This document shows positions 1 through 45,920 of a DNA stretch of 64,000 nt, one piece after another. Origin of the DNA: Eledone cirrhosa (taxonomy: Eukaryota); NCBI GenBank assembly GCA_964016885.1, contig OZ024742.1:74586001-74650000 (forward strand), written 5' to 3'. A program made the position numbers and the translations under genes. The number at the start of each line of letters is the position of its first letter. Within the stretch, counting starts at the first letter, position 1. The notes beneath the pieces are model-generated. The model did no database searches. It saw nothing but the letters and a program-made list of their open reading frames with translations, and was not told the DNA's origin.

Positions 1-2208
1 CATCGCTTTGCCCCTCCACTCGCCGAGTTGCAAAGCGACTGACTTGTCCCGGTTCAGCTTAGCCCCTGTCAACCTTTCGTACTCCTCTAGTAAGGTGCCG
101 ATTGCCTCGATTTCCGAGGCGGTCGACACCATTACTGTTACGTCATCGGCGTAGGCCGACACCGCTTTGCGCAATCCCGGTTCCAAAGGGATGCCCTGCA
201 ACAACTCCAACTTCCGCAGTAATGGCTCGAGAGTCAATACATACAGAAGGGAGGAGAGAGGGCACCCCTGTCGGATGGAGCGGGTGATTTCGAACGGCTC
301 CGAAAGGTAGCCGTTCACCTTGATTCTAGAGCAGATGCGGCTGCTGTGCATGGCAGTGATCCAGCCCCTGAAAACGGGTCCGAACCCAGCCGCCGCTAGC
401 ACCGCATCCAGGTAACCATGGTCCACCCTATCGAACGCTTTAGACTGATCTAAATTTATCAGGGCTCCACCAAAGCCGGGTTCGTTCCCAACCCTCTCTA
501 TGATGTATCGCATGAGGTGGAGGTTGTCGTGGATGGACCTGGACGGGATAGCGCATGTCTGCGCATCTCCCACCAGGCCCCCCACGACAAGCGCCAACCT
601 CTTCGCTAACACCTTCGCCAAAATCTTTAACTCTGCATTTAGCAGAGTTATGGGCCTAAAATTACTAATGTCATCCCCCTTGTTCTCGTCCTTCCTCACT
701 AGCGAGACTACGCCCTTGGTCACAGAACAGGGAATTCTCCCGTTCTGTTGCCAGTTGCAGTAGACCGCCTCGAGGAGATCGGGGAACAAGTCCGGCATAT
801 TAATATATAGTTCGTAGGGCAGACCATCGAGTCCTGGAGATTTGCGTTTGCCGCATAGGCTCAGCACGTCCCCTATTTCAGCAGCTGAGATCGGCCCGTC
901 GCAGGACCTCGCCTCCCCGTCCGAAAGACGCGGCAGGCCGTCGAGGTATGGACCGAAATCCACATCTCCAACCGGCTCCCCGCCCCTCCCGAACAATTGG
1001 GCAAAGTGCCTTTGAAAGGCCTCGCACATTTGCTTAGGTTCAAGGATCAGCCGTCCATCCTGGTCTCGCAAAGACCGGATAGTGGATTTAATCCCACTTT
1101 TCGCTTCTGTCACGCGGGCCCAGCTAACAGCTTTGGTCCCCTCGTTTCCCAGAGCACGTATTTTGCTTCGGACAACGCAGCCTTCGTGTTTCGCGTCGAA
1201 GAACTGGTTCAAGACCGTTCTCGACGCTTGCACTCTGGCCACGTTGCCGCTTCTCATTGCCTCTTCAACATTAACTACCAACTCCCTTTCCTTCCTATTT
1301 CTATCTGAGGCTAACTCCTTACTAACTCCTATTGAAACTACTCTAATCTCTCTTTTTAGAGAGCCCCACCACCTGTTGTTGACGATGGCGCCCGTCAACT
1401 GCTCCTTAACTAAGGTTCTAATCCGGTCCCTGTAAGCTCTACTTGCCGGTAAGGACAAGTTGAGCTTCCAGTAACCGGGCCCCTGCCTATGCGTTCTATC
1501 AAGGTGGACTACGCAGGTCACTAACTTGTGGTCTGAATAGCCCACCATGAGCATTTCTGGACAACTTAAAAAGTCCCTATCCTTAATTCTAACTAAGAAC
1601 CTATCTAGGTACGATCTAGATTGACCACTGTTATTTGACCAGGTCCAGGTTGGTACAGTCGGAAAATCTAGTCGGTATCTATCGGCCAGGTCGAATCGGC
1701 CGATTAACCCCTTAAGGCTGTTACACCCCCCTCTATCGGGACATGCCCCTACATAGTCCCAACGTGCATCTAGGATACCATTCCAGTCCCCCACTAAAAG
1801 CAAGGAGCGGGACGTCCCTAGAAAAGTCTCCAGACGATGGAAGAAGTCCGACCGCATTGCCCCAAAAGGGGCGTATACGGCGACAAGCCTAAAAGCTTCG
1901 CCTTCGCCATTGCCAAGGTCCAGAACCACGAGTCGACCCTCCGGGTCCAAGTGTACCGTCTGTGTAGCGAGACCCAGATGTTTTTGCAGCAGAACGACAA
2001 CCCCACCCCCACCTCCGGGCTGACAGAGAGATGCGTGCATCTCAAAGTCATCAAAGGTGGGGGTTAGCTGTCGCATGCTGCTGATCCGGGCCTCGCAAAT
2101 AACCATCACATTTACACATTGTGACCTGAGGTCACTTAGAAGTTTAGCTTGCTTCCAAGGTGAGCCCAGGCCACGCGCATTTAGACAACCCACTCTTAAG
2201 ACAGCCAT
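1..2208 (-). CDS. ORF2 (APE endonuclease + reverse transcriptase), partial at window edge
   Basis: Manual translation from ATG 2208 gives MAVLRVGCLNARGLG...LVAVYAP...LLVGDWN, later FRPITLLN and DQSKAFDRV, with AYADDV (156-139) in the same frame. The ORF track reports no terminated ORF in this frame, consistent with at least 736 open codons. Confidence 0.9.
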   Translation of the reverse strand, partial: MAVLRVGCLNARGLGSPWKQAKLLSDLRSQCVNVMVICEARISSMRQLTPTFDDFEMHASLCQPGGGGGVVVLLQKHLGLATQTVHLDPEGRLVVLDLGNGEGEAFRLVAVYAPFGAMRSDFFHRLETFLGTSRSLLLVGDWNGILDARWDYVGACPDRGGCNSLKGLIGRFDLADRYRLDFPTVPTWTWSNNSGQSRSYLDRFLVRIKDRDFLSCPEMLMVGYSDHKLVTCVVHLDRTHRQGPGYWKLNLSLPASRAYRDRIRTLVKEQLTGAIVNNRWWGSLKREIRVVSIGVSKELASDRNRKERELVVNVEEAMRSGNVARVQASRTVLNQFFDAKHEGCVVRSKIRALGNEGTKAVSWARVTEAKSGIKSTIRSLRDQDGRLILEPKQMCEAFQRHFAQLFGRGGEPVGDVDFGPYLDGLPRLSDGEARSCDGPISAAEIGDVLSLCGKRKSPGLDGLPYELYINMPDLFPDLLEAVYCNWQQNGRIPCSVTKGVVSLVRKDENKGDDISNFRPITLLNAELKILAKVLAKRLALVVGGLVGDAQTCAIPSRSIHDNLHLMRYIIERVGNEPGFGGALINLDQSKAFDRVDHGYLDAVLAAAGFGPVFRGWITAMHSSRICSRIKVNGYLSEPFEITRSIRQGCPLSSLLYVLTLEPLLRKLELLQGIPLEPGLRKAVSAYADDVTVMVSTASEIEAIGTLLEEYERLTGAKLNRDKSVALQLGEWRGKAM

Positions 2209-2231
2209 GTTGGTGGCAAAGAAAGAGGCAC

Positions 2232-3977
2232 TTACCTCTCTGCGTCCCGGGGTTCGGGTCGCTCAGTTTCCATGGGGCTGGTGGCGGGGTTGATGGGTGG
2301 GGTGGTGGTTTGTGGTGGTGTGGGGGTATTGGTGTGTGGAGGGGTTGGGATCTTTGGAGTTGTGTGGGTGTTTGAGGAGGGGAGGGGAAAACCTTTCAGG
2401 AGGACGCGGTTGAGTGGCCTGGTGCAGGGTGGGCCCACGTCCTCAGGGTACATGTCTTTTAAAGTTTTAAAAATGTCAAGTGGGATTTTCACCATTTTCA
2501 GGTTAGGGAGCCCCATTGCCGTTACGAAATTCGGCCCTTCGGTTTGTATCGAAGGGTTGGTTTCTATTTTTAAAGTTAGGTTTTCATTGTTTTTGTTTAT
2601 GTATGTGTAGAGTTTTTGTGTTGTTGTGTTTGTTTTTGCTTGTTGTTGTTGAGTGAGTTTGCGTTTTATTGTCTGTGTTGTGTTGTCAGGTGGGGTTATT
2701 TTTGTTGTTGTGGTGTGTGTACGTTTTTTTCTTTTCACTTTTTGGAAGGGAGCCCCCTCGTCTTCCGACGATATGAGCTCCTCTTCCGTATTGGAGGGGA
2801 GGGGTATATCTCCGGGTTGTGTATGAACTGTTTTTGTATTTGTGTTCTGTGGGGTGGGGCTGGGTGGGACCGTGTTTTGGGTTGTTTTCTTGAGCTGTTG
2901 TTGATGTTGTTGTTGTTGTGGTGGTGTTGTTGGTTTTTGTTGTTCTGGTGGTGATGGTAGTGTATTTTGTTGTTTTTGTGATGGTGGTGCTGGTTGTTTT
3001 TGTTGTTGTTGTGGTGTTTGTAGCAGTGGTTTTTTTGTTGTTAGTAGAGGGCAGGCCGTCCTCAGGTGACCTCTGCCAGCGCAGTGGTAACATGAGGGTC
3101 TCCTGCCTTCCACTGTGATATTTATGTAGGTTCGCCCATCCAGTAGCACTCGGTCGGGTATTCCGGAGATTCTCTCAGGTGTCATCTGTAAGAGAACCTC
3201 CAGACTTTTCCCCCCGAACAGTCCACTGGTGGACTCCCCTGCTGAAATTAGTATGTCCTTACCTAGGTCGGTAAATCCTGTTAGGACGGACCAGATGTTA
3301 ATTTCTGGCGTAGGGCTCCACATTCTTATCCTTTGTGTTCTTCTTCCTTTATATGTGGGGAAGAAGGTGTAATGTGGTGACACTATAGGTGCCACCGAAT
3401 ATTTCTGAGCCAGCATTTCGTCCTTCATTCGGACCATAATGCTGGCATACAGCTTTCCTCTTTGAATAAAGAGTATGTCATTTTTAATTTCTTTCAGAAC
3501 CAGCTCGATTTGACTTTCGGTCAATTGCGCTGGCTTTCTCGTTTCGTTGGTTATGGTTCTGTAGCTTACGGTATTCTTGTAAATCTGTTCACGCACTTCT
3601 TCTGGGGAGTTGATCGTAAAAGAACCATCCTCCCCAAAAGATACGTATTTTCTAGCCTCTAGCAAATTTTCCTTGGCGTTCGTGATGTCAATGGCTTTGT
3701 ATTCCGTGGCTCTCCTAAGTGTTTGGGCAAAAGAAATTTTGTCTTTGTTTGTTGTTGTAATGTTGTTGGTTTCCTTATTTGTGGTGCTATTTTTTTCTTC
3801 AAAATTAATTTTTTCATTTGAATTGAAATTCTTTTTTTCATTGGAGAGGAGGGGTTGTTCAACAGTTTGAACTGTTGTTCCCTCTTTCCCGCTTGTTTTT
3901 TTGGTCGGCGTGGCGTTCGCTTCCAATATGGCGATATCGTTTTCGACGATATCGTTATCAACGATATCGATAAACAT
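2232..3977 (-). CDS. ORF1 gag-like nucleic-acid chaperone (RRM-like region, CX2CX4HX4C zinc knuckle, Q/P/T-rich linker, conserved C-terminal domain)
   Basis: Intact 581 aa with CYHCAGRGHLRTAC, lying directly upstream of ORF2. Homologous ORFs at 39.4-41.0 kb, 44.9-45.9 kb and 51.7-53.2 kb. Confidence 0.88.
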   Translation of the reverse strand: MFIDIVDNDIVENDIAILEANATPTKKTSGKEGTTVQTVEQPLLSNEKKNFNSNEKINFEEKNSTTNKETNNITTTNKDKISFAQTLRRATEYKAIDITNAKENLLEARKYVSFGEDGSFTINSPEEVREQIYKNTVSYRTITNETRKPAQLTESQIELVLKEIKNDILFIQRGKLYASIMVRMKDEMLAQKYSVAPIVSPHYTFFPTYKGRRTQRIRMWSPTPEINIWSVLTGFTDLGKDILISAGESTSGLFGGKSLEVLLQMTPERISGIPDRVLLDGRTYINITVEGRRPSCYHCAGRGHLRTACPLLTTKKPLLQTPQQQQKQPAPPSQKQQNTLPSPPEQQKPTTPPQQQQHQQQLKKTTQNTVPPSPTPQNTNTKTVHTQPGDIPLPSNTEEELISSEDEGAPFQKVKRKKRTHTTTTKITPPDNTTQTIKRKLTQQQQAKTNTTTQKLYTYINKNNENLTLKIETNPSIQTEGPNFVTAMGLPNLKMVKIPLDIFKTLKDMYPEDVGPPCTRPLNRVLLKGFPLPSSNTHTTPKIPTPPHTNTPTPPQTTTPPINPATSPMETERPEPRDAER

Positions 3978-4152
3978 TTCTCAAATATTTATTTTTCACC
4001 CCAAAAGGGGTGAAAATATATTTACCCGACGTCTAGAGTCCCAGACTAGGGGTTACAGTTAATTATACAAAAGAATTCAAAAAATTCCACTCACAAAAAT
4101 AGCAGGTAAAAATCCAAATCACAGAGCGATATGACACACGTCTACTATCCTC

Positions 4153-5050
4153 AGACAGACAGACAGACAGACATACAGACAGACAGACATACAGACAGAC
4201 ATATAGACAGACATACAGGCATATAGACAGACATATAGACATATAGACAGACATACAGACATATAGACATATAGACATATAGACATACAGACAGACATAC
4301 AGACATATAGACATATAGACATATAGACATACAGACATATAGACATATAGACATACATATAGACATATAGACATATAGACAGACATACAGACATATAGAC
4401 AGACATACAGACATATAGACATATAGACATATAGACATATAGACAGACATACAGACATATAGACAGACATACAGACATATAGACATATAGACATATAGAC
4501 ATACAGACAGACATACAGACATATAGACATATAGACATATAGACATACAGACATATAGACATATAGACAGACATACAGATATATAGACATATAGACAGAC
4601 ATATAGACAGACATACAGACATATAGACATACAGACAGACATATAGACATATAGACATATAGACAGCTAGAGAGACATATAGACAGTCAGGTAGATATAC
4701 AGACACCTAGACAGACAGGTAGATATATAGACATATAGACATATAGACAGACAGGTAGATATATAGACATATAGACAGACAGGTAGATATATATATATAG
4801 ACAGACAGGTAGATATATAGACATATAGACAGACAGGTAGATATATATATATAGATAGACAGGTAGATATATATACATATAGACAGACAGGTAGATATAT
4901 ATATATATATATAGACAGACAGGTAGATATATAGATAGACAGGTAGAGATATATATATATATATAGACAGACACGTAGATATATATATATAGACAGACAG
5001 GTAGATATATAGACAGACAGGTAGATATATATATATATAGACAGACAGGT

Positions 5051-5123
<73 letters not shown>

Positions 5124-5478
5124 TAGACAGGTAGATATATATATATATAGACAGACAGGTAGATATATATACATATAGACAGACAGGTAGATATATAGAC
5201 ATATAGACAGACAGGTAGATATATAGACAGACAGGTAGATATGTAGACAGACAGGTAGATATATATATATAGACAGACAGGTAGATATATATATATAGAC
5301 CGACAGGTAGATATATATATATAGACAGACAGGTAGATATATATATATATAGACACACAGGTAGATATATAGACAGACAGGTAGATATATATATATAGAC
5401 AGACAGGTAGATATATATATATAGACAGACAGGTAGATATATATATATATACAGACAGGTAGATATATAGACATATAT
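4153..5478. repeat. Compound minisatellite: (AGAC/ATAC/ATAT) mix grading into AGACAGACAGGTAG(AT)n units
   Basis: Directly visible. It produces the spurious '[16 protein letters not shown]' ORFs. Confidence 0.97.
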
Positions 5479-7801
5479 GTTTCTTTTATTTGCCACTAGG
5501 GCATCAAAAGTGGGACAAGTACAAAGGGGGGAGTTTACACAAAAAGGCGTCCTCAATAAGGAGGAGGCAATAACAAAATATAAAAATAAAATAAGATATA
5601 ACAAAAAATAAAATTTTTAACAAAATCCTCAATAGAGAGGAGGCGCCTTGGGGGGTCGCACACACCCCCGAAAAAAGTGTGCAACCCTTCTCCTCAGGAG
5701 CACAGAGTAGGGGTGCTCCCTTGGTCTTTCATCTTCCTCACCTATAGTCTGATGTAGAGTGAAGGCCCATTCACACGGGCCATTCTCGCCACTTTCACCC
5801 ATCTTTCATAGAAACGGCTGGGGTGCAGCACCTCTCTCTCCATCCTGATCCTTCTTCCGAAATGATATCGGAAGAAACGGACCAGTTGTTGGCCAGAGAG
5901 AAAGGTGCCTGACCTCAGTCCTTTCAGACGCGTCCACCATACAACCTCTTTCGCCATGGCTATTACGCACAGAAACACCGCCTCTGCTTCATCTTTGAAG
6001 GGGGGAGGCGGCTTGATCATTACAATAGACTCGGTGGTCAACCGGATCGGTCCCACCCTTGACAGCAGTTGTTCGACATAGCCCCACAGATCGGCTACGC
6101 CCGAGCAGTGTACCAATGCGTGTGCAACGGTTTCCTCGTCGCACACGCATCTGGGACAGATCTTTTTGGCGGGGTCCCTACCCGGGCGCCCGTGTCTGTA
6201 GAGCCTTTCTCGAACGGGTAAAGCCCCTCGGTAGCACTGCCAGGCCAGGGATTTCTGGAAGTTGTCCATAGGTCCCGGGCTGAATGTCCTACCGAACAGG
6301 CTGGCCAGTTCGTCCTCCTCCATGTCTAGGGCTTCTCCGAGGGCGTCGTCGCACCTGCTGCGTACCAGCCCTCTATAGAATGTTGCGGTGGAGTCTCCAC
6401 TGATAACCGGATCCGCCTGCCAGAGGGCGGTGAGCGCCTGGGCACACTCAGTGTGCCAGGCGCCCAGTTTTCTCGGTCTTTGCTTGACCCAGGATTGCAG
6501 CTCGGTGAGTGAGACGAGTCTGGGAAAGGTTCGTCTCACAAACGAGGCCCACACCGGTTGTCCGGTGAGGAATACGTAGAGGTGCCGTAGCCTTAATGCG
6601 TGTTTACGCATCATTAGCCACGGCATCCCCAGCCCTCCTTTCGAAGGGTGTTGACAGCAGATGGATCTCCTCACCATAGGAGCCCGCCTCTTCCAAAGGA
6701 ATTGGAAGAGCGCGCGCTCCATCTTGGTGAGGGTTTCCCTTGGGCAGGGCACTACGGTCAGGCGGTAGTAGATGACGGACGCTATGTAGGTGTTCGCCAC
6801 CTCCGCCCGACCTTTCAGGGATAGTTTGCAACTGGCCCACTTCTGGGTCAGTGCAAACACCCTGTTCGTAACCTCCGCCCAGTTTTTCTCCACCTGGAGG
6901 TCCGGTCCGAACCAGACCCCGAGCAACTTCACCGGGCCCTCCGTCCAGCGTCCGACGACGCTATCGGAGGGCATCGGTCTGCCCCTCCACGTGCCGAGTT
7001 GCAAACCGATCGACTTGTCCCGGTTCAGCTTAGCCCCTGTGAACTTTTCGTACTCCTCCAGTAAGGTGCCGACCGCCTCGATTTCGGAGGCCATCGACAC
7101 CATTACTGTCACGTCATCGGCGTAGGCCGACACCGCTTTCCGCAATCCCGGTTCCAAAGGGATGCCCTGCAACAACTCCAACTTCCGCAGTAGTGGCTCG
7201 AGAGTCAACACATACAGAAGGGAGGAGAGAGGGCACCCTTGTCGGATGGACCGCGCGATTTTGAACGGCTCCGAGAGGTAGCCGTTCACCTTGACCCTAG
7301 AGCAGATGCGGCTGCTGTGCATAGCAGTGATCCAGCCCCTGAAAACGGGTCCGAAGCCTGCCGCCGCTAGCACCGCATCCAGGTAACCATGGTCGACCCT
7401 ATCGAACGCCTTAGATTGATCCAAGTTGATCAGAGCCCCACCAAAGCCGGATTCGTTCCCAACCCTCTCTATGATGTATCGCATGAGGTGGAGGTTGTCA
7501 TGGATGGACCTGGACGGGATAGCGCATGTCTGCGCATCTCCCACCAGGTTGCCCACGACAAGCGCCAACCTCTTTGCTAGCACCTTGGCCAAAATCTGTA
7601 ACTCTGTATTTGGCAGTGTTATGGGCCTGAAGTTACTTATTTCGTCCCCCTTGTTCTCGTCCTTCCTCACTAGCGTGACTACGCCCTTGGTCACAGTACA
7701 GGGAATTCTCCCGTTCTGTTGCCAGTTGCAGTAGACCGCCTCGAGGAGATCGGGGAACAAGTCCGGCATAGCTAGATATAATTCGTAAGGAAGACCATCG
7801 A
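5479..7801 (-). mobile_element. Tx1-clade copy B, 5'-truncated (RT to 3' UTR)
   Basis: Open frame 7801-5742 reads DGLPYELY...QGCPLS...AYADDV...CPRC..ETVAHALVHC...PSLYIRL*. The 3' UTR ends in ...CTAGTGGCAAATAAAAGAAAC. Closely similar to copy A over the RT. Confidence 0.92.
5742..7801 (-). CDS. ORF2 C-terminal part (RT + zf-RVT), 5'-truncated but uninterrupted
   Basis: ORF track 5742..7940. The first ~46 codons are satellite; RT homology starts near 7800. Confidence 0.85.
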
Positions 7802-10072
7802 TATATAGACAGACAGGTAGATATATAGACAGACAGGTAGATATATAGACAGACAGGTAGATATATAGACAGACAGGTAGATATATATATATATAGAGAG
7901 AAAGGTAGATATATAGACAGACAGGTAGATATATAGACATATAGACAGACAGGTAGATATATATATATATAGACAGACAGGTAGATATATATATATAGAC
8001 AGACAGGTAGATATATATATATATACAGACAGGTAGATATATATATATAGACAGACAGGTAGATATATAGACATATAGACAGACAGGTAGTTATATATAT
8101 ATATAGACAGACAGGTAGTTATATATATATATATAGACAGACAGGTAGATATATATATATATATATATAGACAGACAGGTAGATACATATATATAGACAG
8201 ACAGGTAGATATATAGACAGACAGGTAGTTATATATATATATATAGACACACAGGTAGATATATAGACAGACAGGTAGATATATATATATAGACAGACAG
8301 GTAGATATATAGACAGACAGGTAGATATATATATATAGACAGACAGGTAGATATATATATATAGACAGACAGGTAGATATATATATATATACAGACAGGT
8401 AGATATATAGACATATAGACAGACAGGTAGATATATATATATATATATATATATAGACAGACAGGTAGATATATAGACATATAGACAGACAGGTAGATAT
8501 ATATATATATAGACAGACAGGTAGATATATAGACATATAGACAGACAGGTAGTTATATATATATAGACAGACAGGTAGATATATATATATATAGACAGAC
8601 AGGTAGATATATATATATATATAGACAGACAGGTAGATATATATATATAGACAGACAGGTAGATATATATATATAGACAGACAGGTAGATATATATATAT
8701 AGACAGACAGGTAGATATATATATATAGACAGACAGGTAGATATATATATATATAGACAGACAGGTAGATATATATATATAGACAGACAGGTAGATATAT
8801 AGACAGACAGGTAGATATATATATATATAGACAGACAGGTAGATATATATATATAGACAGACAGGTAGATATATAGACAGACAGGTAGATATATATATAT
8901 AGACTGACAGGTAGATATATATATATATATATAGACAGACAGGTAGATATATAGACAGACAGGTAGATATATATAGACAGACAGGTAGATATATATATAT
9001 ATATATAGACAGACAGGTAGATATATAGACAGACAGGTAGATATATAGACAGACAGGTAGATATATAGACATATAGACAGACAGGTAGATATATAGACAT
9101 ATAGACAGACAGGTAGATATATATATATATAGACAGACAGGTAGATATATAGACAGACAGGTAGATATATATATAGACAGACAGGTAGATATATAGACAG
9201 ACAGGTAGATATATATATATATAGACAGACAGGTAGATATATATATATATAGACAGACAGGTAGATATATATATATAGACAGACAGGTAGATATGTATAT
9301 ATATATATATAGACAGACAGGTAGATATATATAGACTGACAGGTAGATATATATATATATATATAGACAGACAGGTAGATATATAGACAGACAGGTAGAT
9401 ATATAGACAGACAGGTAGATATATAGACATATAGACAGACAGGTAGATATATAGACATATAGACAGACAGGTAGATATATATATATATAGACAGACAGGT
9501 AGATATATAGACAGACAGGTAGATATATATATAGACAGACAGGTAGATATATAGACAGACAGGTAGATATATATATATATAGACAGACAGGTAGATATAT
9601 ATATATATAGACAGACAGGTAGATATATATATATAGACAGACAGGTAGATATGTATATATATATATATAGACAGACAGGTAGATATATATATATATAGAC
9701 AGACAGGTAGATATATATATATATAGACAGACAGGTAGATATATAGACATATAGACAGACAGGTAGTTATATATATATATAGACAGACAGGTAGATATAT
9801 ATATATATAGACAGACAGGTAGATATATATATATAGACAGACAGGTAGATATATAGACATATAGACAGACAGGTAGATATATATATATATAGACAGACAG
9901 GTAGATACATATATATAGACAGACAGGTAGATATATAGACATATAGACAGACAGGTAGATATATATATATAGACAGACAGGTAGATATATGTAGACAGAC
10001 AGGTAGATATACATACATATAGACAGACAGGTAGATATACAGACATATACACACACAGGTAGATATATAGAT
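7802..10072. repeat. ~2.3 kb minisatellite, unit AGACAGACAGGTAG(AT)n with optional AGACATAT
   Basis: Directly visible. Variable AT-run lengths, with recurring variant units (e.g. ATATGTATAT at ~9291 and ~9650). Confidence 0.97.
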
Positions 10073-10160
10073 AAATTTCTTTATTAGCCACAAGGGCACA
10101 AAAGAAGGGGACAAATACAAATGAGGAGTTTACATATAGGTATATAAAAAAAAAAAAAGG
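10073..10160 (-). mobile_element. Short 3'-terminal stub of a Tx1 element
   Basis: AATTTCTTTATTAGCCACAAGGGCACAAAAGAAGGGGACAAATACA...GAGTTTACA matches the 3' UTR ends at 5479, 35766 and 41377. Confidence 0.85.
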
Positions 10161-28384: not shown

Positions 28385-28385
28385 C

Positions 28386-29413: not shown

Positions 29414-32400
29414 CGGCGGATAGTGTGCTCTGCGAAACATCATCCAACCGCCACTTTTTCATTGAGGACCTGCTATCAGGTAGAGCCTTTCTGGTTGACA
29501 CTGGTGCAGTTTGTTCAATATGGCCTGTGTGTTGTATGAAGGAGACTCCCTCTGAGACACCCATTGAGTTGCAGGCAGTAAATTGTTTGCCGATTCGAAC
29601 CTTCGGACAAATCTCGCTACCTTTGCAGTTCTGTAATCTGCGGCGCGAGTTTAAATGGATATTTACTGTCGCTGCCTTGCCGTATCCGATTCTATGCGCG
29701 GATTTTCTCCACCATTTTTCATTGACGGTGGACATCCGTTGTAAGCGCCTAATTGATGGCATCACTGGTTTAACTGTTGTTTTTTCTTGCTATCACCGGC
29801 GATACTTACCATGCGTTGTTGAACTCGTTCCCGCAACTGACTCAGGGAAATTTCCGAATTGATGAGCCAAATCATACCACGGAGCACTTCATAACTACAA
29901 CTGGTGCTCCCGTTTTTTCTCGTCCTCGTCGCTTGCCCCCGGAAAAACTCAAAGCAGCACGATCAGAGTTTGATCATATGCTGCAGTTGGGGATTATACG
30001 TCCGTCCACGAGCCCGTGGGCGTCCCCATTACACATGGTACCGAAAGCGACTGGCGATTGGAGACCTACTGGAGATTATCGACGCTTAAATTCGATAACG
30101 GAACCGGACCGTTATCCTATCCCTCATCTGCAAGACTTTGCGTCTTCGTTGCAGGGATGCAAGATATTCTCCAAACTGGATTTAATTCGTGCATACCATC
30201 AAATTCCTGTCCATAAAAATGACATTCCAAAAACGGCTATAGTTACGCCATTTGGGTCATTTGAGTTTTTGACCATGCTGTTCGGATTAAGGAATGCCGC
30301 TAGTACGTTTCAGCGGTTTATGGATGAGGTTACTCGTGGCCTCGATTTCGTCTATACCTATATTGACGACCTGCTCATTGGTAGTTCTTCTCAAGAGCAA
30401 CATACACACCATTTGAATCTTCTTTTCCGCCGATTGAAGGCGTATAACGTGCAGATTAATGCACCCAAATGTGTTTTTGGTGCTGAGTCACTGACTTTCT
30501 TGGGTCACGTCATCGATGCTGACGGTATTCGACCCCGGCCTGAGCGAGTTAAGGTCATAGAGGATTTGCCTCCACCGACCTCACTACGTCAGTAACGCCA
30601 GTTCTTAGGCCTGATTAACTTTTATAGGCATTTCGTGCCAAATTGTGCAAGATTGCTTTTCTCCCTGACGGAGATTTTAAAAAATTGTCGGAAGAAGAAC
30701 AAAGACATTTCTTTGACAGACACTCAACTTGCTTATTTTCAGCACGCCAAAACTGCTTTGGCTAATGCTTCGTTACTGGCTCACCCGGTACCCGGTGCAA
30801 AGCTAACGCTTTGTGTTGATGCATCGGATATCGCTGTGGGCGCAGTGCTACAGCAAAACACCAATGGTTACCAGCAACCGCTGGAGTTCTTTTCCAGAAA
30901 GATGAAACCTGCTGAGACGCGCTACAGCACCTTTGGAAGGGAGCTTTTGGCCATCGATTTAGCCGTGAAACATTTTTCACATATGCTAGAGGGTAGACTA
31001 TTTACTATCCTCACTGACCATAAACCATTGATTTTTGCGTTGAGAGCGAAGGCTGATAAATACTCGCCCAGAGAGACGAGACACCTTGATTTCATCTCGC
31101 AATATACGCAATATCCAACACATTCCGGGTTCACTAAATACAGCGGCCGATGCTTTGTCCTGCTTACTCGTGACAGCGATCTCGTCACCCTCTGACATAG
31201 ATCTGACTCGTTTGGCTGCGGATCAGCCTCCCCTTGAGTCATTGGATGTTACATCACCTGAGTTTGCGAATTGCGAGATGAAATACTTGCCTCTGTCGAC
31301 TGCAGTTGGCCAAATTCTCTGCGACGTGTCTTTGGACGTGCCTAGGCCCTTCGTTCCAGAGAATCATCGTCGGACCGTGTTTCTGGCATTACATAGTTTC
31401 TCGCATCCAGGATCTTCCGCCACAGCAAAGCTCATATCAGCTAGATTTTTCTGGCCAAATATGAGGCGTGAAATTGCTGCTTGGTGCTGTTCCTGCGTCG
31501 CTTACCAGAAATCAAAGGTCCATCGACACGTCAAGGCTCCCCTGGGTACCTTTACTAACCCAGATGCGCGTTTTTCACACATTCATATTGATATAGTGGG
31601 ACCTTGGCCTGTTAGCGATGGTTATTCTTATCTGCTGACCATAATTGACCGTTTTTCGAGATGGCCTGAAGCCATCCCCTTGAAAAACATCACCGCTGAG
31701 ACAACAGCGCGTGCTCTTTTGTCTGGATGGATCTCTCGTTATGGAGTTCCATCCACAGTAACTACCGACCGTGGACGACAGTTCGAGTCGAGCCTTTTCC
31801 TCGAACTGTCAAAATTAATTGGTGCTAAACGCATCAGAACTACGGCGTACCATCCCGCTTCGAATGGTATGGTGGAGCGTTTTCACCGACAACTGAATGC
31901 CTCCTTAATGGCCTCAATGGACTCGGCGCATCGGAGCGAGTACCTTCCTATTGTGCTACTAGGGATTCGGTCAACGGTGAAGGTCGACTTTGGATTTTCA
32001 CCGGCCGAAGTACTGTACGGTGCCCCTCTGACATTGCCCGGGCAAATGCTTGCCCCTATCGATCTTGATGCCCAAGATCACGCTTCCTACGTGTCCCGTT
32101 GCGCTCCTATTTCCAGGATTTGCCGCCAATGGACACTAGGAAACAAACTGTCAAGACTGCTGTCCCGAGGGATGTTGCCTCGTGGACGCATGTATTTGTA
32201 AGGAAAGATTCTGTGAAGCCCCCGCTCACACAGCCTTACACTGGACCTTACCGTGTCTTAGCGCGCTCGGCTAAGCATTTCACTTTAGATATTAAAGGAT
32301 CCAGGGAGACAGTTACAATAGACAGACTTAAGCAGGCACACCTTGACACGGACGCTGTGGTTCCTGATCCACGAACCCCTTCGTATTTGCCTGTTGAGCG

Positions 32401-35691: not shown

Positions 35692-35716
35692 AATTTCTTT
35701 ATTAGCCACAAGGGCT
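35692..35716 (-). mobile_element. Ultra-short (~25 nt) Tx1 3'-end stub within a GATA repeat
   Basis: AATTTCTTTATTAGCCACAAGGGC with GATA repeats on both sides. Confidence 0.75.
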
Positions 35717-35722
35717 AGATTA

Positions 35723-35765
<43 letters not shown>

Positions 35766-35766
<1 letters not shown>

Positions 35767-38700
35767 ATTTCTATTTATTTGCCACGTGGGCACAAAAGAA
35801 AGGGACACATACATGGAGGGTGGGGAGTTTACATAGAAATAGAGTAAAAAAATGTAATAACAAATAAAATTATAACAAAAAGGTCCTCAATAGGGAGGGA
35901 TCGTTTTGGGGGTCACACACACCCCCGAAAAAAAATGTGCGACCCTTCTTTACGGGAGCACAAAGAGAGGGTGCTCCCTTCTTCCTTCATCCTTTTCCAC
36001 CTACAGGCTGAGGTAGAGAGAAGGCCCATTCACACGGGCCATTCTCGCAACTTTCACCCACCTTTCATAAAACTTGCTGGGGTAGAGCACCTCTCTCTCC
36101 ATTCTGATCCTTCTTCATGGTATTTGAAAAAAAAGACCAGTTGTTGGCCGGAGAGAAAGGTGTCCGCCCTCAGCCCTTTCAGCCTCGTCCACCATGCAAC
36201 CTCTTTAGCCATGGCTATCACACAGAGGAAAACCGCCTCTCCTTGGTTTTTGAAGGGGGGAGGCGGCTTGATCGTGACAATGGACTCGGTTGTCAACCGG
36301 ATTGGTCCCACCCGCTACAGTAGTCGTTCCACATAGCCCCACAGGTCAGCAACGCCCGGGCAGTGTACGAATGCGTGCGCGACGGTTTCCTCGTCACGCA
36401 CGCATCTCGGACAGATCTTTTTCGAGGGATCCCTACCCGGGCGCCCGTGTCTGTAGAGCTTGTCCCGTACGGATAGAGCCCCTCGGTAGCACTGCCAGGC
36501 CAAGGACTTTTGGAAGTTGCCCATCGGTCCCGGTCCAAACGTCCTACCGAACAAACTGGCTAGTTCGTCTTCCTCCATGCCCAGAGCTTCTCCGAGAGCG
36601 TCGTCGCACCTGCTGCGAACCAACCCTCTTTAGAATGTCGAGCTGGAGTCTCCACTGATTGCCGGGTCCGCTTGCCAGAAGGCCGTGAGCACCTGGGAAC
36701 ATTCAATGTACCAGTCGCTCACTTTTCTCGGTCTTTGCTTGACCCAGGATTGCAGCTCGGTGAGCGAGACGTGTCTCGGAAAGGCGCGCCTCACAAACGA
36801 AGCCCACACCGATTGACCGGTGAGGAATACCTCGAGGTGCCTTAGCCTTAATGCGTGTTTATGCATCGCCAACCACGGCATCCCCAGCCCTCCGTTTGAA
36901 GGGTGTTGACAGCAGATGGATCTCCTAACCAAAGGGGCCCGCTTCTTCCAAAGGAATTGGAAGAGCGCGCGCTCCATTTTGGAGCCTGTTTTCGCTGGGC
37001 AAGACACGACGGTCAAGCGGTAGTAGATGACGGACGCTATATAAGTGTTCGCCATCTCCGCTCGACTTCTGGGCGAGTGAAAACACCCTAGCCGTTACCT
37101 CATCCCAGTTTTTCTCCACCTGGAGATTGGTCCGAACCAGACCCCGAGCAGCTTTACCGGCCCCTCCGGCCAGCGTCCGACGACGCTGTCGGAGTGCATC
37201 GGTTTGCCTCTCCACGTTCCGAGTTGCAAACCGACGGACTTGTCCCGGTTCAGCTTGGCTCCTGTAAACCTTTCGTATTCCTCCAGTAAGGTGCCGATCT
37301 CCCCGATTTGCGAAGCGCTCGACACCATTACTGTCACGTCATCGGCATAAGCCGACACCGCTTTCCGCAATCCCGGTTCCAAAGGGATGCCCTGCAACAG
37401 CTTCAGCTTCCGCAGTAGTGGCTCGAGAGCCAGCACATACAGAAAGGAGGAGAGAGGGCACCCCTGTCGGATGGATCGAGTGATTTGGAACGGCTCCGAG
37501 AGATAGCCGTTCACCTTGAGCCTTGAGCAGCTGTTGCTGCTGTACATCACAGCAATCCAGCCCCTGAAAACGGGTCCGAAACCTGCCACCGCGAGCACCG
37601 CATCCAGGTAACGATGGTCAACCCTATCGAACGCCTTAGATTGATCCAAGTTGATCAGGGCCCCACCAAAGCCGGGTTTACACCCTACTCTCTCTACGAT
37701 ATATCGCATGAGGTGGAGGTTGTCGTGAATGGACCTGGACGGGATTGCGCATGTCTGCGCTTCTGCCACCAGGTTCCCGACGACAAGCGCCAACCTCTTC
37801 GCTAACACCTTGGCCAAAATCTTTAACTCTGCGTTTAGCAGAGTTATGGGCCTAAAATTACTTATCTCATCCCCCTTGTTCTCGTCCTTCCTCACCAGAG
37901 TGACTACGCCCTTGGTCACAGAACTGGGAATTCTCCCGTTCTGTTGCCAGTTGCAGTAGACCGCCTCGAGGAGATTGGAGAACAAGTCCGACTTGCTACA
38001 TACATTTTCGTATGGTAGACCATCGAGACCCGGAGATTTGCGTTTGCTGCATTGGCTCAGCGCTTCCACTATTTCAGCTGAAAATCGGCCTTTCGCAGGA
38101 CTTCGCCTCCTCGTCCGAGAGCCGCGGTAGACCGTCGAGGTATGGACCGAAATCCATAGTCTCACCCGCCCCCGCCCCTCCCGAACAGTCGTTCAAAGTG
38201 CCGTTGAAAGGCTCGGGTACAAGGATCACACGCCCATTCTGGTCCTTCAGAGACCGAATCGTGGATTTGTTTCCATTTTTTGCCTCTGTCATTCGGGTCC
38301 AGCTAACAGCTTTGGCTCCCTCGTTACCCAGAGCACGTATTTTACTCCTGACAACGCAGCCCTCGTGCTTCGCGTCAAAGAACTGGTCTAAGACCGTTTT
38401 TGACGCCAGCAGGTTGGCCACGTTGCCACTCCTAATCGACTCTTCTACTCTATCTACTAATTCCTTTTCAGTTTTATTCCTATCTCTTTCTAATTCCTGA
38501 CTAAAACCTATCGATTCTATTCTAATTGCTCTCTTGAGAGAGCCCCACCACCTGCTGTTGACAATTGTCCCTGTCAACCGCTGCTTAACTAAAGTGCTAA
38601 TCCGTTTACTGTAAGCTTTGTTTGTCGGTAAGGACAAGTTTAGCTTCCAGAAACCGGGTCCCTGTCTATGGGTTCTATCAAGGTTGAGTATGCAGGCCAC

Positions 38701-41287
38701 TAACTTGTAATCCGAATAGTCAACCATGAACATTTTTGGACAGCTTAATATGTCCCTATCCTTATTTCTAACTAGGACCCTATCTAGGTACGACATAGAT
38801 GTTCCGCTGCGGTTAGTCCACGTCCACAGTGGCACAGTCGGAAAATCTAGTCGATATCTATCGGCCAGGTCAAATCGGCCGATTAACCGTTTGAGGCTGT
38901 TACACCTCTCTTTATCGGGACATGCCCCTACATAGTCCCAACGTGCATCCAGGATACTATTCCAGTCCTCCACTAAAAGCAAGGAGTGGGACGTTTCTAG
39001 AAAAGTCTCTAAGCGTTGGAAGAAGTCCGGCCGCGGTGTCCACCTTTACCACTGCCGACGTCTAGAACCCTCAGTCGACCCTCCGGGTCCAGGTGTACCT
39101 TATGTGTGGCAAGACCCAGGTGTTTTCGCAGCAGAACGACAACCCCAATCCCACCCCAGCTAACAGAGTGATGCGTAGATCTCAAAGTCGTCGAAGATGG
39201 AGGCCAGTTGGCGCTCGTTGCTGATCCTGAACTCGCAAATAGCCATTACACCCACTCTGTGCGACGTGAGGTCATTTAAGTGTTTGCCCTGTTTCCAGGA
39301 CATCCCCAGGCCGCGTGTATTCACACATCCAACTCTTATATTGGCCATGTTGGTGCTGAAGAGTTAAAAGGAAGAGGAAAAGAAATTACTTACCTCTTCG
39401 TCTCCTGGGGACCAGGCTACACAATTTCCATGGGGGTGTTGGAAGGGTTGTTTGGTGGTGTGGTGGTTTGTAGTGGGGTGTGGGTGTCTGGGGTGGGGGT
39501 GGGGAAACATTTCAATAGGACGCGGTTAAATGGTTTGGTGCAGGGGGGCCCCACATCCATTGAATGGTTCTTTTTCAGTGTTATATAGGTATCCATTGGG
39601 ACCCTAATTATCTTTAGGTGCGGTTTGCCCGCTGTGTAGGTGAAAGTGATCCTTCGGGTTCCACCGAAGGGTTATTGTCTATTGCTTTCATCAAAGTTTT
39701 ATTGTTCTTGTTAATGTATGTATAGTGTTTTTGTTGTGTTTGTTTTTGTTTGTTGTTCTTGTGTGTGTTTGCGTTTTGTTGTATGTATTTTGTTTTCGGG
39801 AAGGGCGGTTCTTGTTTGGTCTGTTTGTGTTCGTGTTTGTGTGTTTGTTTCGTTTTTGTTCATGTGATGTCTCCTTTTTTTCTTTTCACGGGTTGGAAGG
39901 GTTCCCCTTCATCGCCACTGGGTGACGTTGAAACGGGGTTCTCGTCCGTGTTGTATGGAAGGGGTATATTTTGGGGTTCTGTTGTGACTATGTGTGTTTT
40001 TGTATTTGTTTTGGGTGAGGAGGGTTTGGTGGGACGGTGTTTTGTGTTGTTTTTTCTTGTTGTTTTTGTTGTTGTTGTGGTGGTGGTGGTTGTGTTGTTG
40101 TTTGTGGAGTAGGCAACAGCGCCTTTTTTTTTATTTGTCAATTGAGGACAGGCAGCCCTTAGGTGACCTCTGCTTGAGCAGTGGTAACATGCGGGCCGCC
40201 TACCCTCAACTGAGATGTTTATGAATGTCATACCATCCAGGGACACCCTCTGCGGTATTCTAGCGATTCGTTCTGGTCTCATTAGGACCAGAAGCTCCAC
40301 GCTCGTGCCGCCGAAAACGACCCCGGTGGCTTCTCCTATTGAAAGGATCTTGTCTTCATCCTCTAAGAATACCGTTAGCACCCACCAAATGCTCGCATTT
40401 GGCCGGATTCCTGAGATTCTAATTTTCTGGGTTCTTTTTCCCAGATATGTAGGGAAAAAGGTGTATAACTTTGATACAATTGGCGACACAGAATATTTCT
40501 GGGCCGTCAATTGATCTTTCATTAAGACCGATATACTCCCATACAGTTTCCCTTTCTGAATGAAAGATATATCAGTCCATGCATTCTTTAGTACCAGATC
40601 AATTTCGCTTTGGGTTAATTGAGCCGGTTTTTTCGTTATGTTCGAAATTGTTCGGAAGGATAAGGTCCTCAGGACCGTCTCTCTTCTAATTTCTTGGAGG
40701 GAGGTTATTGTAAATTCCCCTCCTTCCCCAAAAGTCACATAGTTCCTTGCTTCTTTTAACAATTCTTTTGCATTCGAAATGTCGAGTTGTCTGTAGGTCT
40801 GTGTCTCTCGTACCGCCTGTGCGAAGGAGACTTCAGTTGTGGGTACGTTTTGTTTGGTCTTGTTGTTGTTATTATTGTTGTTTTCCTTTTTTTTTTTTAT
40901 TGGTGTTTTCCTTTGCGCTGGTGTTGTTTGTGTTATCGTTGTTGGTGTTGTTGGTTGTGGGGTTCATGCTGTTATTAATTCCATTTGGGTTAGCACCCAT
41001 TTTTACAAATTTTTTTATTAATTCCAAGTTCATTGTTTCTTTTTCGGAAGTGAGGAGGGAAGACTTAGCACGTTACGCTGCTTCTTTCTCTGGCAAATTC
41101 GTCAACAAATTTTTACAATGAAAGTTTCACCCCAAAAAGGGGCGAAAATTATTGACCCCAACGTCTGCAGTCCCAGGCGAGGGGTTAAATTAAACAATAA
41201 AAACAAATTTAACAATAAACTCACAATTATTTGTGTAAATATCCACAATACTCGAGGAGCGAAGTAAACCACGTCTATCGCCACCAA
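35766..41287 (-). mobile_element. Tx1-clade copy C, full-length but frameshifted; both ends joined to (GATA)n
   Basis: 5' UTR homologous to copy A. ORF1 remnant with CYHCSSRGHLRAAC (39860-40762). ORF2 from ATG 39348 (MANIRVGCVNTRGLG), fragmented, to stop ~36001. 3' motif at 35766-35792. Confidence 0.92.
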
Positions 41288-41313
41288 GATAGATAGATAG
41301 ATAGATAGGTAGG

Positions 41314-41368
<55 letters not shown>

Positions 41369-41376
41369 ATAGATAG
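41288..41376. repeat. (GATA)n spacer between Tx1 copies C and D
   Basis: Directly visible. Confidence 0.95.
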
Positions 41377-44300
41377 ATTTCTTTATTTGCCACAAGGGCG
41401 CACAAGAAAAGGGGACAATACAAAGACACATGCCGGGGATTTTACATACGGGGATTTTACAAACAAACAAATTTAACAATCGAAATCCCCAATAGAGGGG
41501 AGGCGTTACAAATGGGTTGTTTAATACCCCGTCGATAGAACAACCCTCAACTACAGGAGCGTGTTGTGCAAGTGCTCCTTTCTTCCTTTTGCTCTCATCT
41601 TCAACCTACAGGTTTATATACAGAGAAGGCTTAATCACTCGGGCCATTTTTGCTACATTCACCAACCTTTCAGTAAATTTACTGGGGTGCAGTGCCTCTC
41701 TCTCCACTCTGATTCTCCTTCTAAAGTGGTACCTAAAGAAGGGAATGAGTTATTGTCCGGAGAGAAAGGCATCTGTTCTCAGTCCTTTCAATCTCGTCGA
41801 CCATATAATCTCTTTTAGCATAGCCACTATACAGAGGAAAACCGCCTCTCTTTCGTTTTTGAAAGAAGTTGGTGGTTTGATCCTTACTATGGACTCGGCA
41901 GTCAACTGGATTTGTCCCATACGAGACAGCAGTTGTTCTGCGTAGTTCCACAGGTCGCTTACGCCCGGGTAGTGTACAATTGCGTGCAAGACGGTTTAAA
42001 TGTCCTGCTCAAATCTTGGACACGTCCTCTTTGAAGGATCCCTGCCGAGGCGTCCGTGCCTGTAGATCTTGTCTCGAACTGGTAGAGCTCCTCGGTAGCA
42101 CTGCCAGGCCAGGGACGTCTGGAAGTTGTCCAGAGGTCCCTGGCAAAGTCCTACCGTACAGACTGGTGAGCTCGTCGTTTTCGACGCCCAGAGTTTCTCC
42201 GAGCACGTCGTCGCATTTGTAACGTACTAACCCTCTATGATTGCTGTGATCGCTTGAAAGAGGACTGTGAGCGCCTGAGCACATTCAATGTGCCAGGCGC
42301 CCATTTTCTTCGGTCTCCGCTTGACCCAGTACTGCAGCTCCGTCAGCGAAACAAGTTGTGGGAAGGTTTGTCTCACAAACAGGCCCATACCGGTTGTTCG
42401 GTGAGGAATACCTGGAGATGCCGTAGCCTCAGCGCGTGTTTGCGCCTCATCAGACATGGCATTCCAAGCCCTCTGTTGGAAGGGTTCTGACACCAGACGG
42501 ATCTCCTCACCAGCGGAGCCTGTTTCTTCCAAAGGAACTGGAACAGCATGCGTTCCATCTTGGTAAGGTATTCACGGTGACAAGGCACGACGGTCAAGCG
42601 GTAGTAGATGATGGACGCTATGAAAGTGTTCGCCACCTCCGCTCGATCTTTCAAGGATAGTTTGCACTCTGCCCACATCTGGGTGAGTGAAAATGCCTTG
42701 GCCATGACCTCGTTCCAGTTTTTTTCCACATGGAGGTCGGGACCGAACCAGACCCCGAGCAATTTCACCGATCCTTCCGTCCAGCGTCCGACGACGCTGT
42801 CGGACGGCATCGGTTTGCCTCTCCACGTTCCGTGTTGCAAACCGACAGACTTGTCCGGGTTCAGTTTTGCTCCTGTGAGCCTCTCGTATTCCTGCAGTAA
42901 TTTGCCGATCGCCCTGATTTCCGAGGGTTTAGACACCATAACTGTCACGTCGTCGGCATAAGCCGACGCCGCTTTCCGCAGTCCCGGTTCCAACGGGATG
43001 CCCTGCAGAAGCTCTAACTTCCGCAGTAGTGGCTCTAGAGTCAATACGTAAAGAATGGAGGAAAGAGGACATCCTTGTCGGATGAAACGTGTGATTGCGA
43101 ACGGCTCCGATACGTAGCCGTTCACCTTGACCGTCGAGCAGATGTTGGTGTGCATTGCTTTGATCCAGCCTCTGAAGACGAGTCTGGAACCGGCCGCCTT
43201 GAGAACCACTTCCAAGTATTGATGGTCGACCCTATCGAACGCCTTAGACTGATCTAAATTGATCAGAGCCCCACCGAAGCCGGGTTTACACCCTAACCCC
43301 TCTATGATGTATCGCATGAGATGGAGGTTGTCGTGTATGGACCTGGTTGGAATTGGACACGTTTGAGCTTTTCCCACCAGGTTCTCGACGACAAGCACCA
43401 GCCTCGTTGCTAACACATTGGCCAGTGTTTAGGAGAGTTATGAGCCTACAGTTGCTTAGTTCGTCCCCCTTGTTCTCGTCTTTCCTGATCAGCGTTACTA
43501 CGCCCCTGCATGCAGAACTGGGAATTCTCCCATTCTACTGCCATTTGCAGTAGACGGCTTCGAGTACGCCAGAGAATAAGTCCGGTATGCCTATGTAAAA
43601 TTCATAGGGTAGACCATCTAGACCGGGTGATTTGCGTTTCCCGCAGCGGCCCGCAGTGGCTGTGATCGGTCTTTCGCAGAACTCGGCGTCCATGCTCGAG
43701 AGACGCGGTAGGCCGTAATGTATGAACCGAAGTCCATTGCCCGCTCTTCTCGAACAGTTGCGCAAAGTGCCGCTGAAAAGCCATGCACATCCGCTTGGAG
43801 TCAAGTAGCACGCGTCCGTTTTGGTCTTTCAAAGACCGAATCGTGGACTTGTTGCCACTTTTCGCCTCTGCCACTCGGGCCGAGCTAACAGCTTTTGCTC
43901 CCTCGTTTCCTAGAGCACGTGATTTACTTCTGACCACGCAGCCTTCGTGTTTCGCAATGAAGAACTGGTCTAAGGCCGTTCCGTTGCTAGCACTCTAGCT
44001 GCGTTGCCACTCCTAAGCGCCTCCTCTACCTTGGCTACTAGTTATGTTTCTGTTTTGTTTTTCTCTAAGGCTAGTTCTTTTTTAAAAGTTATCGACTCTA
44101 CTCTAATTGCTTTCTTCAGAGAGTACCACCATCTATTATTGACATCAACTGTTGCTTAACTAATCTACTAATCCGTCTACTGTAGGCTTTACGTGTCGGT
44201 AACGACATGTTCAGCTTCCAGTATCCGCGTCTTTGTCTATGTGTTCTATCATGGTTGACTATGCAGGTGACTAGATGTCCCGCTGCGGTTTGTCCACGTC

Positions 44301-45920
44301 CACTGTGGTGCAGTCGGGAAATCTAGTCGATACCTCTCGGCCTGTTGGAATTGGCCGATTAAATTTGTGAGACTGTTGTACCCCCCTCTACTAGGACATG
44401 CTCCTACATTGTCCCATTGTGCGTCTCGGATACCATTCCAGTCCCCAACTAAAAGCAAGGAGCGAGACGTTCACAGAAAAGACTCTAGACGCTTAAAGAA
44501 GTCTGGCCGCGATTGCCCAGTTGGGGCATAAATGGCTACCAGTCTGAAGGCTCAATCTCCAACGCTGTTCACGTCTTGAACTACCAGTCTACCCTCCTGG
44601 TCCAAGTGTACTTGCTGTATTTCTAGGTCTATGTTTTTTTCCGAAACATGACAGCCACCCCCCCTCCACCTCCTGGCTGAGAGAGAGATGCGTAGATCTC
44701 AAAGTCATTGAAGATGGGGGATCCTGGACTCGGTGATGACTATCACATCTATACCGTGTGCCTAAGCTCGTTTAAAAGTTGGCGTTTCCAGGGCATCCCT
44801 AAGCCACGCACATTCACACTTCCAACTCGTAAATTAACCATGCTGGTGGAGAACAGTTGGCGAAAAAGGACGAAAAGATGCACTTACCTTTTCGTTTCCT
44901 GGAGATCGGGTTGTTAAATCTCTATTTGGGTGCTGGTGGGGGTGTTGGGTGGGGTGGGGAAACATTTTAATAGGATGCGGTTAATAGGTTTTTGACAGGG
45001 ATTGACAACGTCCTGCGAAAATTGTTCTTTTAATTTGTGGTAGGTTTCCATCGAAACCCTTATCAGTTTTAGGTGTGGTTAAGAGTCTGACTTGACAAAA
45101 GTTTTCCCCTCAGTTTCTACTTTGGGGTCTTCGGAGATGACCTCCATTAGGTTTTTGTTGTTTGTGTTAATGTATGTGTATTGTTGTTTGTTTTTTTGTT
45201 GTGTTGTTTTGGTTTGTTGTTCATTTTGTAGTTTTCTTTTTATGGTGGGCATTTGTGTTTGGGGTGGTGTTGGTGTTTGTTTTGCCGTTAGGTGGGGGGG
45301 GGGGATTGTGATGGTGTTTGTATTGTTGTTTGTGTTGGTGGTTGGTGTTTTTATGGCTTTGCTGTGTCTCTCTTTTTTTTTAATTTCCGAGGCTCTCCTT
45401 CATCTTCACTTGGGGATGGAGAAGTAGCCTCGTCTGACGATGAATCGTCATCAAGGGCGCGTGGGAGGGGTATGCTGTGTGGTGATAGTGTGTTTGTGTG
45501 TGTGATGTGGTAGTGTTGGATGGAGTGGGATGGTGTGGGACTGTGTTTTTCAGGGGAATTGTTGTGCGTTTTTTCTATTGTTTGTGGTTGAGCAGTTGTT
45601 TGTTTTTGTGTGTTTGCTTGTTTTGTGTGTTGTTGTTGTGGTTTTGGTGTTGGTGTTGGTAAAAGTACTTTTGGGGGTGGTCGTGGGGGTGGAGGTGTTT
45701 GTTCATAAGAGGGGACAGGAGGCCTTTAAATGCGATGTGCTTGCGCATTTAAAACAATGTGCCCCCCCTCCTTCTGCCGAAATGTGTATATAGTTTGTAT
45801 TGTCTACTGGCACTCTTTCTGGTATCTTGGAAATTCTGTCCGGTTTCATTTGGACCAAAATTTCCAAGCTTGTGCCGTTCCAGGTGTTTCTTGTTGATTT
45901 TTGAATCGACAGTATTGTCA
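41377..45920 (-). mobile_element. Tx1-clade copy D, 5'-truncated within ORF1, decayed
   Basis: ORF1 part with CFKCASTSHLKASC. ORF2 ATG at 44841 (MVNLRVGSVNVRGLG), GDWN, AYADDV; multiple frameshifts. 3' motif at 41377. Confidence 0.9.

Follow-up and report, generated by a model that had tools for sequence, protein, structure and literature searches.

Conserved splice donors that serve unspliced RNA have been described in a long terminal repeat (LTR) retrotransposon and in retroviruses. In EVD, a Ty1/Copia element of Arabidopsis, a conserved donor binds U1, inhibits premature termination and allows a gag-only RNA, shGAG, while the full-length RNA needs intron retention (PMC5580714, in the sections available). 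The donors in human immunodeficiency virus type 1 (HIV-1) and foamy virus let U1 suppress a poly(A) site, securing the full-length RNA (PMC12789967, available portion). In the human long interspersed nuclear element LINE-1 (L1), the proteins prefer their own mRNA. Spliced integrated retrotransposed elements (SpIREs), which arise by splicing within the 5' untranslated region (UTR) and open reading frame 1 (ORF1), are described as dead ends, one spliced form makes up ~1.8% of full-length copies, and the inter-ORF spacer measures 63 bp and has two stops (PMC5860796, in the part accessible). Here we report on a sequence matching a splice donor at the ORF1 stop of an L1/Tx1-type LINE of Eledone cirrhosa. 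Several copies of the element lie in a stretch of 64,000 nucleotides (assembly GCA_964016885.1, contig OZ024742.1, positions 74,586,001 to 74,650,000), hereafter the window.

The window contains nested copies of this LINE, mostly on the minus strand. The sequence-only reading of it had pointed out that copies A, C and D have the motif AG/GTAAGT (the slash marks the exon-intron border) across their ORF1 stop, each ORF1 ending in Arg (AGG) and TAA. It had further noted that the spacers are pyrimidine tracts whose first AG, 41, 38 and 45 nt on, is in frame. For these three copies all of this is correct. The features of the junctions are as follows.

2232–3977, minus strand: ORF1 of copy A, 581 aa and TAA, intact and of a young family
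2230–2237, minus strand: donor AG/GTAAGT of copy A, GT at 2235, in phase 2 of the last ORF1 codon and including the stop
2209–2235, minus strand: spacer of copy A from donor GT to ORF2 ATG, 27 nt, a pyrimidine tract followed by CCAAC, free of AG before the ATG
1–2208, minus strand: 5' part of copy A ORF2 (apurinic/apyrimidinic (AP) endonuclease and reverse transcriptase (RT))
39388–39395, minus strand: donor AG/GTAAGT of copy C, GT at 39393, phase 2
39349–39393, minus strand: spacer of copy C, 45 nt, with TTTTAAC and a CAG ending at 39356; ORF2 ATG at 39348; copy degenerate
44882–44889, minus strand: donor AG/GTAAGT of copy D, GT at 44887, phase 2
44842–44887, minus strand: spacer of copy D, 46 nt, with a CAG ending at 44843; ORF2 ATG at 44841; copy degenerate

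The donor extends far beyond these three copies, to 16 lineages of the genome and one distant family. A pattern anchored on the ORF2 start alone matched 3598 places in the 3.0-Gb genome. GGTRRGT lay 15–60 nt before the ATG in 27 of the first 30 of these, against 0/30 in each of two control windows. A donor-like motif was present at the ORF1 stop in all 16 lineages sampled. Among 15 aligned lineage representatives, the G at −1, the G at +1, the T at +2 and the T at +6 were invariant and the G at +5 and the A at −2 were each kept in 14, whereas none of the 22 flanking positions (−12 to −3 and +7 to +18) was invariant; the sixteenth lineage, M, reads AG/GTAAGT as well. Changes at +3 and +4 were exchanges between A and G only, apart from one T at +4, and as a result all three stop codons (TAA, TGA and TAG) are in use. 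On this comparison the motif is a match to the U2-type 5' splice site AG/GTRAGT and is conserved beyond neutral expectation.

Could the motif be a functionless stop-codon context carried along by descent? The lineages do share an ancestor (ORF2 61–98% and ORF1 28–64% identical to A), the three stop codons account for +2 to +4 in the phase-2 lineages, and one related family lacks the motif. However, the four-fold degenerate sites of ORF2 are only 49–78% identical to A outside A's own subfamily, and of 78 such sites just 17 stay the same in all 13 representatives compared, while the free positions of the donor have stayed unchanged; for three such positions this would be expected with a probability of roughly 0.22^3 = 0.01. 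With the ORF1 frame set by homology to intact ORF1 C-termini, and frameshifted degenerate copies read by the family majority, the donor falls in phase 2 in A, K, E, H, C, C'', C''', D, D2 and J, in phase 1 in C', G, I, I3 and M, and in phase 0 in I2. (For I3, two copies score as phase 1 and two as phase 2; with neither phase does its first AG come into frame.) In the phase-1 and phase-0 lineages the shift has moved the stop out of the motif, yet the motif is kept, and phase-1 C' nests within a phase-2 clade with support of 99/97. Since all three stops occur, and since the motif persists where the stop has left it, the stop codon cannot explain it. The motif is also present in relatives with ~40% ORF2 identity, and we regard inheritance without function as very unlikely.

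These relatives form 6.4–6.9 kb tandem arrays in contigs filed under a bacterial metagenome-assembled genome (L217–L276). The contigs are likely mis-binned eukaryotic (host) DNA, so that by its sequence the donor would extend to a family from another host. Here ORF1 ends in TAA and is followed by G/GTAAGT, 13 nt before the ORF2 ATG and without a pyrimidine tract. The motif after the stop was found in 73 of 75 junction rows, which include overlapping loci, and in 57/57 once these were de-duplicated. A second donor-like motif lies 17 nt after the ORF2 stop of the same family and also exchanges GTAAGT for GTGAGT. No relative was found in viral contigs. As separate observations, L277 and L278 look like similar contamination, and L274, a member of a further family, carries a strong donor motif 43 nt after its ORF2 stop. 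The 3'UTR donor motifs of the distant families are followed by acceptor-like sites 40–250 nt further downstream, and a retained 3'UTR intron is possible there.

Our preferred interpretation, held tentatively, is that the conserved GTRAGT at the end of ORF1 is a 5' splice-site sequence and works as a docking site for the U1 small nuclear ribonucleoprotein (snRNP) on the unspliced RNA. The motif is conserved, varies only in ways compatible with U1 and is indifferent to the reading frame. The spacer is retained in all DNA copies found and is one of the few parts of the element free of codon constraint. In the proposed mechanism, U1 snRNP would dock at the donor of the unspliced full-length RNA and suppress premature 3'-end formation or decay, so that the RNA reaches full length. 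ORF2 would then probably be translated from its own ATG in the CCAAC-ATG-G context that is conserved in this genome. The benefit would act in cis on the RNA being copied, and such a cis effect would lead selection to keep the donor.

Several observations weigh against this interpretation. Hexamers resembling poly(A) signals occurred within ~500 nt upstream of the donor in 17 of 24 elements checked, which does not exceed chance by our own estimate (ORF1, with 30–40% A, should hold about one hexamer per 500 nt). The intact C' copies and L217 have no such hexamer upstream, and no conserved poly(A) signal was found near the donor. Conservation of the G at +5 and the T at +6 also suits true splicing and does not single out a non-splicing role. 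The donor of lineage J is weak (GTAATT). The two exceptions among the 75 junction rows belong to the further family L274/L275, which lacks a strong donor at the junction, and relatives with 28–32% identity (L200–L208, L277) have at most weak GTAA matches there. The donor is thus not needed across the wider group, and the trait marks one sub-lineage. As a side observation independent of these points, composition changes sharply at the junction (L091, L127, L128 and L279): ORF1 contains 36–40% A, whereas ORF2 contains 23–25% A and is GC-rich.

A donor look-alike might instead be kept for another role, such as ribosome re-initiation at ORF2 or the binding of an element or host protein. The motif is indeed located at the junction of stop and restart, beside the pyrimidine tract and the conserved CCAAC-ATG, and similar hexamers may persist without the full donor context, as GTGAGT does in the 5'UTR. 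There, ~45–70 nt from the 5' end, GTGAGT without an exon-side AG is followed by a T-rich tract in seven lineages (A, A2, E, C, C', K and M). In the window it is found at two places.

4089–4094, minus strand: GTGAGT in the 5'UTR of copy A, followed by a T-rich tract, a second donor-like motif or candidate promoter motif
41219–41224, minus strand: GTGAGT in the 5'UTR of copy C

Several lineages further show an AGACGTG-like motif near their very 5' end, which resembles the internal promoters of insect LINEs. At the junction, by contrast, the letters allowed (A or G at +3 and +4; fixed G at +5, T at +6 and G at −1) follow the complement of U1 as given by the donor consensus. The distance of the motif to the ATG varies from 13 to 52 nt and its position relative to the stop varies too. 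The distant family has the motif a second time behind its ORF2 stop, a place that calls for no restart. A role unrelated to U1 is therefore improbable in our judgement.

The sequence-only reading had favoured a different role, in which an intron of 38–45 nt (28–61 nt as considered here) removes the ORF1 stop and joins ORF1 to ORF2 in frame as a gag-pol-like fusion. This proposal is not supported by the phase of the first AG, by the search for spliced retrocopies or by the distant family; the first two outcomes are ones that the sequence-only reading had itself named as refuting. Of the 16 lineages, nine had the first AG in frame and seven (C', D, G, I, I3, J and M) had it out of frame, so its phase is not conserved. 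Five of the nine in-frame cases owe their AG to the AGA of the Arg5 codon of ORF2, preceded by A or G (AAG or GAG), and three (C, C'' and C''') share a single CAG of the C clade, with introns of 28–39 nt; a conserved in-frame YAG acceptor (Y, pyrimidine) was not found. For copy A, the AG is in frame as claimed. It ends at 2195, within the conserved Arg5 codon, and is in phase with a phase-2 donor by construction. It reads TTAAG in A and TTGAG or CTGAG in sister subfamilies, and A or G at −3 makes a poor acceptor by consensus.

The in-phase CAG of copy D had been taken as compensation for a missing AG. It is a minority A-to-G variant of the CCAAC of the D family: of 31 junctions in that family only 5 carry it, and this copy with its two segmental duplicates accounts for three of the five. 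In 21 of the 31 the first AG was out of frame. Copy G, said to have its first AG in the same phase, has no donor.

62952–62978, minus strand: spacer remnant of copy G before the ORF2 ATG at 62951, without donor and ORF1

The (TTA)n tail of a different element (62979–63077) cuts its spacer and takes the place of donor and ORF1. The other copies of the G family have a phase-1 donor, which puts their first AG (CTC/CTT AGA) out of frame.

Two young, intact families with an out-of-frame first AG, C' and M, are natural controls. C' lost one base before the donor and carries the same CAG as its in-frame sisters, now out of frame; its ORF1 is open over 643 aa, its ORF2 measures 1145 aa and its copies are 97–99.5% identical. 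M has 328 copies. All six that were fetched are phase 1 with an out-of-frame CAG, five of the six with both ORFs intact, and donor and spacer are kept in all of the first 100 of the 328 listed copies. The distant family has its stop ahead of the donor, and consequently no splice from this donor can fuse the ORFs. M is very young (328 near-identical junctions; L279–L284) and also forms an array of ten head-to-tail copies at a spacing of 5.84 kb (C1:423.36–423.42 Mb).

Spliced copies were sought in the genomic DNA. In family A, none with a gap of 0–12 nt was found against 251 unspliced copies. In the A and C clades there were three short-spacer copies, none of them a GT-AG deletion, against 737 unspliced; this set overlaps the 251 of family A and covers the clades without E, D, G, I and M. 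Were a fusion mRNA the source of ORF2, cis-preference would make that mRNA the template and the intron would vanish from the copies. No fused ORF1-ORF2 protein was present among proteins of 1020–2910 aa, which is weak evidence. The C clade offers the fusion its best case: C, C'' and C''' keep a branch-point-like TTTTAAC with the in-frame CAG, the CAG is present in 30 of 30 C loci, and the G before the ORF2 start is missing from no more than 13 C-clade copies in which that start is otherwise exact, all of them point mutants (exons ending in G would be missed by this screen). A fusion confined to the C clade is nevertheless scarcely tenable in our estimate, and fusion by a micro-intron, largely refuted, is removed as a general mechanism.

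An ORF2-only mRNA, spliced from the 5'UTR donor to an AG in the spacer, was considered and rejected. It fits just those lineages with an AG before the ATG, and 8 of the 16 do not have one as a feature of the family (A, K, E, H, D, D2, G and I). The 13 candidates of the C clade are point mutants, and the first 100 of the 328 M copies are unspliced. GTAAGT also occurs on the plus strand of the window, at 53857 and 63499; both sites are antisense to ORF2 ends and unrelated to the donor at the ORF1 stop.

Both alternatives that the sequence-only reading had named beside the fusion, a U1 site and a distant acceptor, remain as the leading readings. In the second, the motif would be a true donor, spliced in part of the transcripts to an acceptor within ORF2 or near its stop. 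The resulting ORF1-only mRNA would raise the ratio of ORF1 protein (ORF1p) to ORF2 protein (ORF2p), or turn ORF2 off in some tissues. A donor at the ORF1 stop would leave ORF1 nearly whole while the ORF2 ATG is lost, whatever the phase, and in the phase-1 and phase-2 lineages and the distant family it indeed lies within 5 nt before the stop or just after it. Candidate acceptors, pyrimidine-rich YAG, are found at about +415, at about +2807 and at the ORF2 stop in several lineages and in the 3'UTR of the distant family; the window holds an example.

5742–5770, minus strand: end of copy B ORF2, pyrimidine-rich codons followed by TAG/G, a candidate distant acceptor

The candidate acceptors fall within conserved codons for hydrophobic residues, which are rich in pyrimidines in any case, and none is common to all lineages. 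No DNA copy joining the end of ORF1 to the 3'UTR hairpin was found, in a search whose 3' motif was checked for part of the families. This absence is expected either way, since an RNA that lacks ORF2 would seldom give rise to a DNA copy, and retrocopies that are absent for this reason do not count against the splice. Copia provides a precedent (PMC5580714, sections available). Against this reading, ORF1p made from a separate RNA would benefit a copy only in trans, to judge from the cis-preference of L1 (PMC5860796, accessible part). Regulated splicing to a distant acceptor, giving an ORF1-only mRNA as the non-LTR counterpart of the Copia gag RNA and kept across hosts, is in our view a possible but less probable explanation than U1 docking. 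The two are not mutually exclusive, as a single donor does both in EVD (PMC5580714, sections available). If an ORF1-only mRNA is made, intron retention would be the switch that permits ORF2 and transposition.

Of the four sequencing runs listed, all of one study, none is on record as RNA. Contigs from such runs were compared with two elements; contigs drop rare forms, and neither comparison is evidence for or against splicing. At the copy A junction three joints were listed, none of them at 2195–2235, and one contig of run X1 crosses the copy A donor unspliced. On the intact C' element L128, none of the 15 listed joints (of 265) in the X1 and X2 contigs starts at the donor. A single X1 contig (depth 20) skips 178 nt within ORF2 of L128 (4548–4725), with GT and AG at the ends of the skipped part and a weak donor; this joint is absent from X2.

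The assignment of the element follows from its proteins. ORF2 matches the Pfam families Exo_endo_phos, RVT_1 and, below the cut-off, zf-RVT, with the AP endonuclease at the N-terminus and a zinc motif at the C-terminus. No Pfam match to ribonuclease H (RNase H) was found in ORF2, and the best match in the Protein Data Bank is human L1 ORF2p (E 1e-50). Two ORFs, an AP endonuclease, an RT and a C-terminal zinc motif without RNase H place it in the L1 group. ORF1 is gag-like, with a CX2CX4HX4C knuckle read from the sequence of copy A. The zf-CCHC profile is weak in copy A (E 0.066) and above the cut-off in L223, and the Atlas neighbours of ORF1 are CCHC proteins. A gag-like ORF1 with a CCHC zinc knuckle is a feature of the Tx1 clade, in which target-site specificity is common and not universal; our clade label, a putative one, comes from these features, and the searches for relatives returned no named Tx1 reference. 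Counting the neighbouring stretch (L091), copy A ORF2 is intact with 1145 aa, and 57 places in the genome are 100% identical to it over 80 aa.

Families A, C' and E likewise occur in tandem arrays with microsatellite flanks, which suggests insertion into their own microsatellite tails. Two I2 copies (L135 and L160) share one starting point, which lies ~45 nt ahead of the donor and behind an (ATT)n tract; L135 keeps an ORF2 of 1126 aa. The pair possibly reflects truncation that has happened repeatedly, or else a subfamily without ORF1. The block that carries copies C and D (window 39200–45200) occurs three times on C3, at 74.35, 74.49 and 74.63 Mb, at a spacing of ~140 kb and nearly 100% identical, as a segmental duplication. 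On the plus strand of the window, an open frame of 640 aa at 46470–48392 matches the ADAMTS cysteine-rich domain (E 6e-12), possibly an intronless ADAM-like gene, and 31044–32201 holds an integrase fragment of an LTR retrotransposon (rve, Integrase_H2C2).

Compared with the described systems, the element shares with Ty1/Copia a U1-type donor conserved at the gag/pol boundary (PMC5580714, sections available). Unlike it, it is a non-LTR element with two ORFs and a stop of its own, whereas the Copia elements have LTRs and one gag-pol ORF in which splicing makes the stop. As at the major donor of HIV-1 and foamy virus (PMC12789967, available portion), the full-length RNA may be protected by U1; the viral donors, however, lie at the 5' end by the LTR poly(A) signal and are also spliced, whereas the donor here is mid-element. 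Human LINE-1 is likewise an L1-group element with splice signals, and its spliced RNAs that keep ORF2 are copied to DNA (PMC5860796, accessible part), in contrast to our element, which has a conserved donor where ORF1 stops and of which no spliced copy turned up in the DNA. With the Tx1 clade it has in common the CCHC ORF1, the AP endonuclease, RT and C-terminal zinc motif of ORF2, and tandem arrays by microsatellites. Active L1-Tx1 families are reported from an octopus, and the available sections of that paper do not mention splicing (PMC13282606). Among the titles and abstract openings searched, in literature without Repbase entries and subscription papers, no donor at a LINE ORF1 stop and no Tx1 inter-ORF donor was described. 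The class of mechanism is known from Copia and retroviruses, and a use of it between the two ORFs of a LINE seems not to have been described.

The junction donor bears on two open questions of LINE biology, namely how LINEs keep ORF1p abundant and ORF2p scarce and how an intronless RNA reaches full length. A donor kept through frame shifts, stop swaps and a change of host suggests that U1 or the spliceosome is a selected part of the life cycle of this LINE. Families A, C', E and M, which are young and intact and number hundreds of near-identical copies, make this directly testable.

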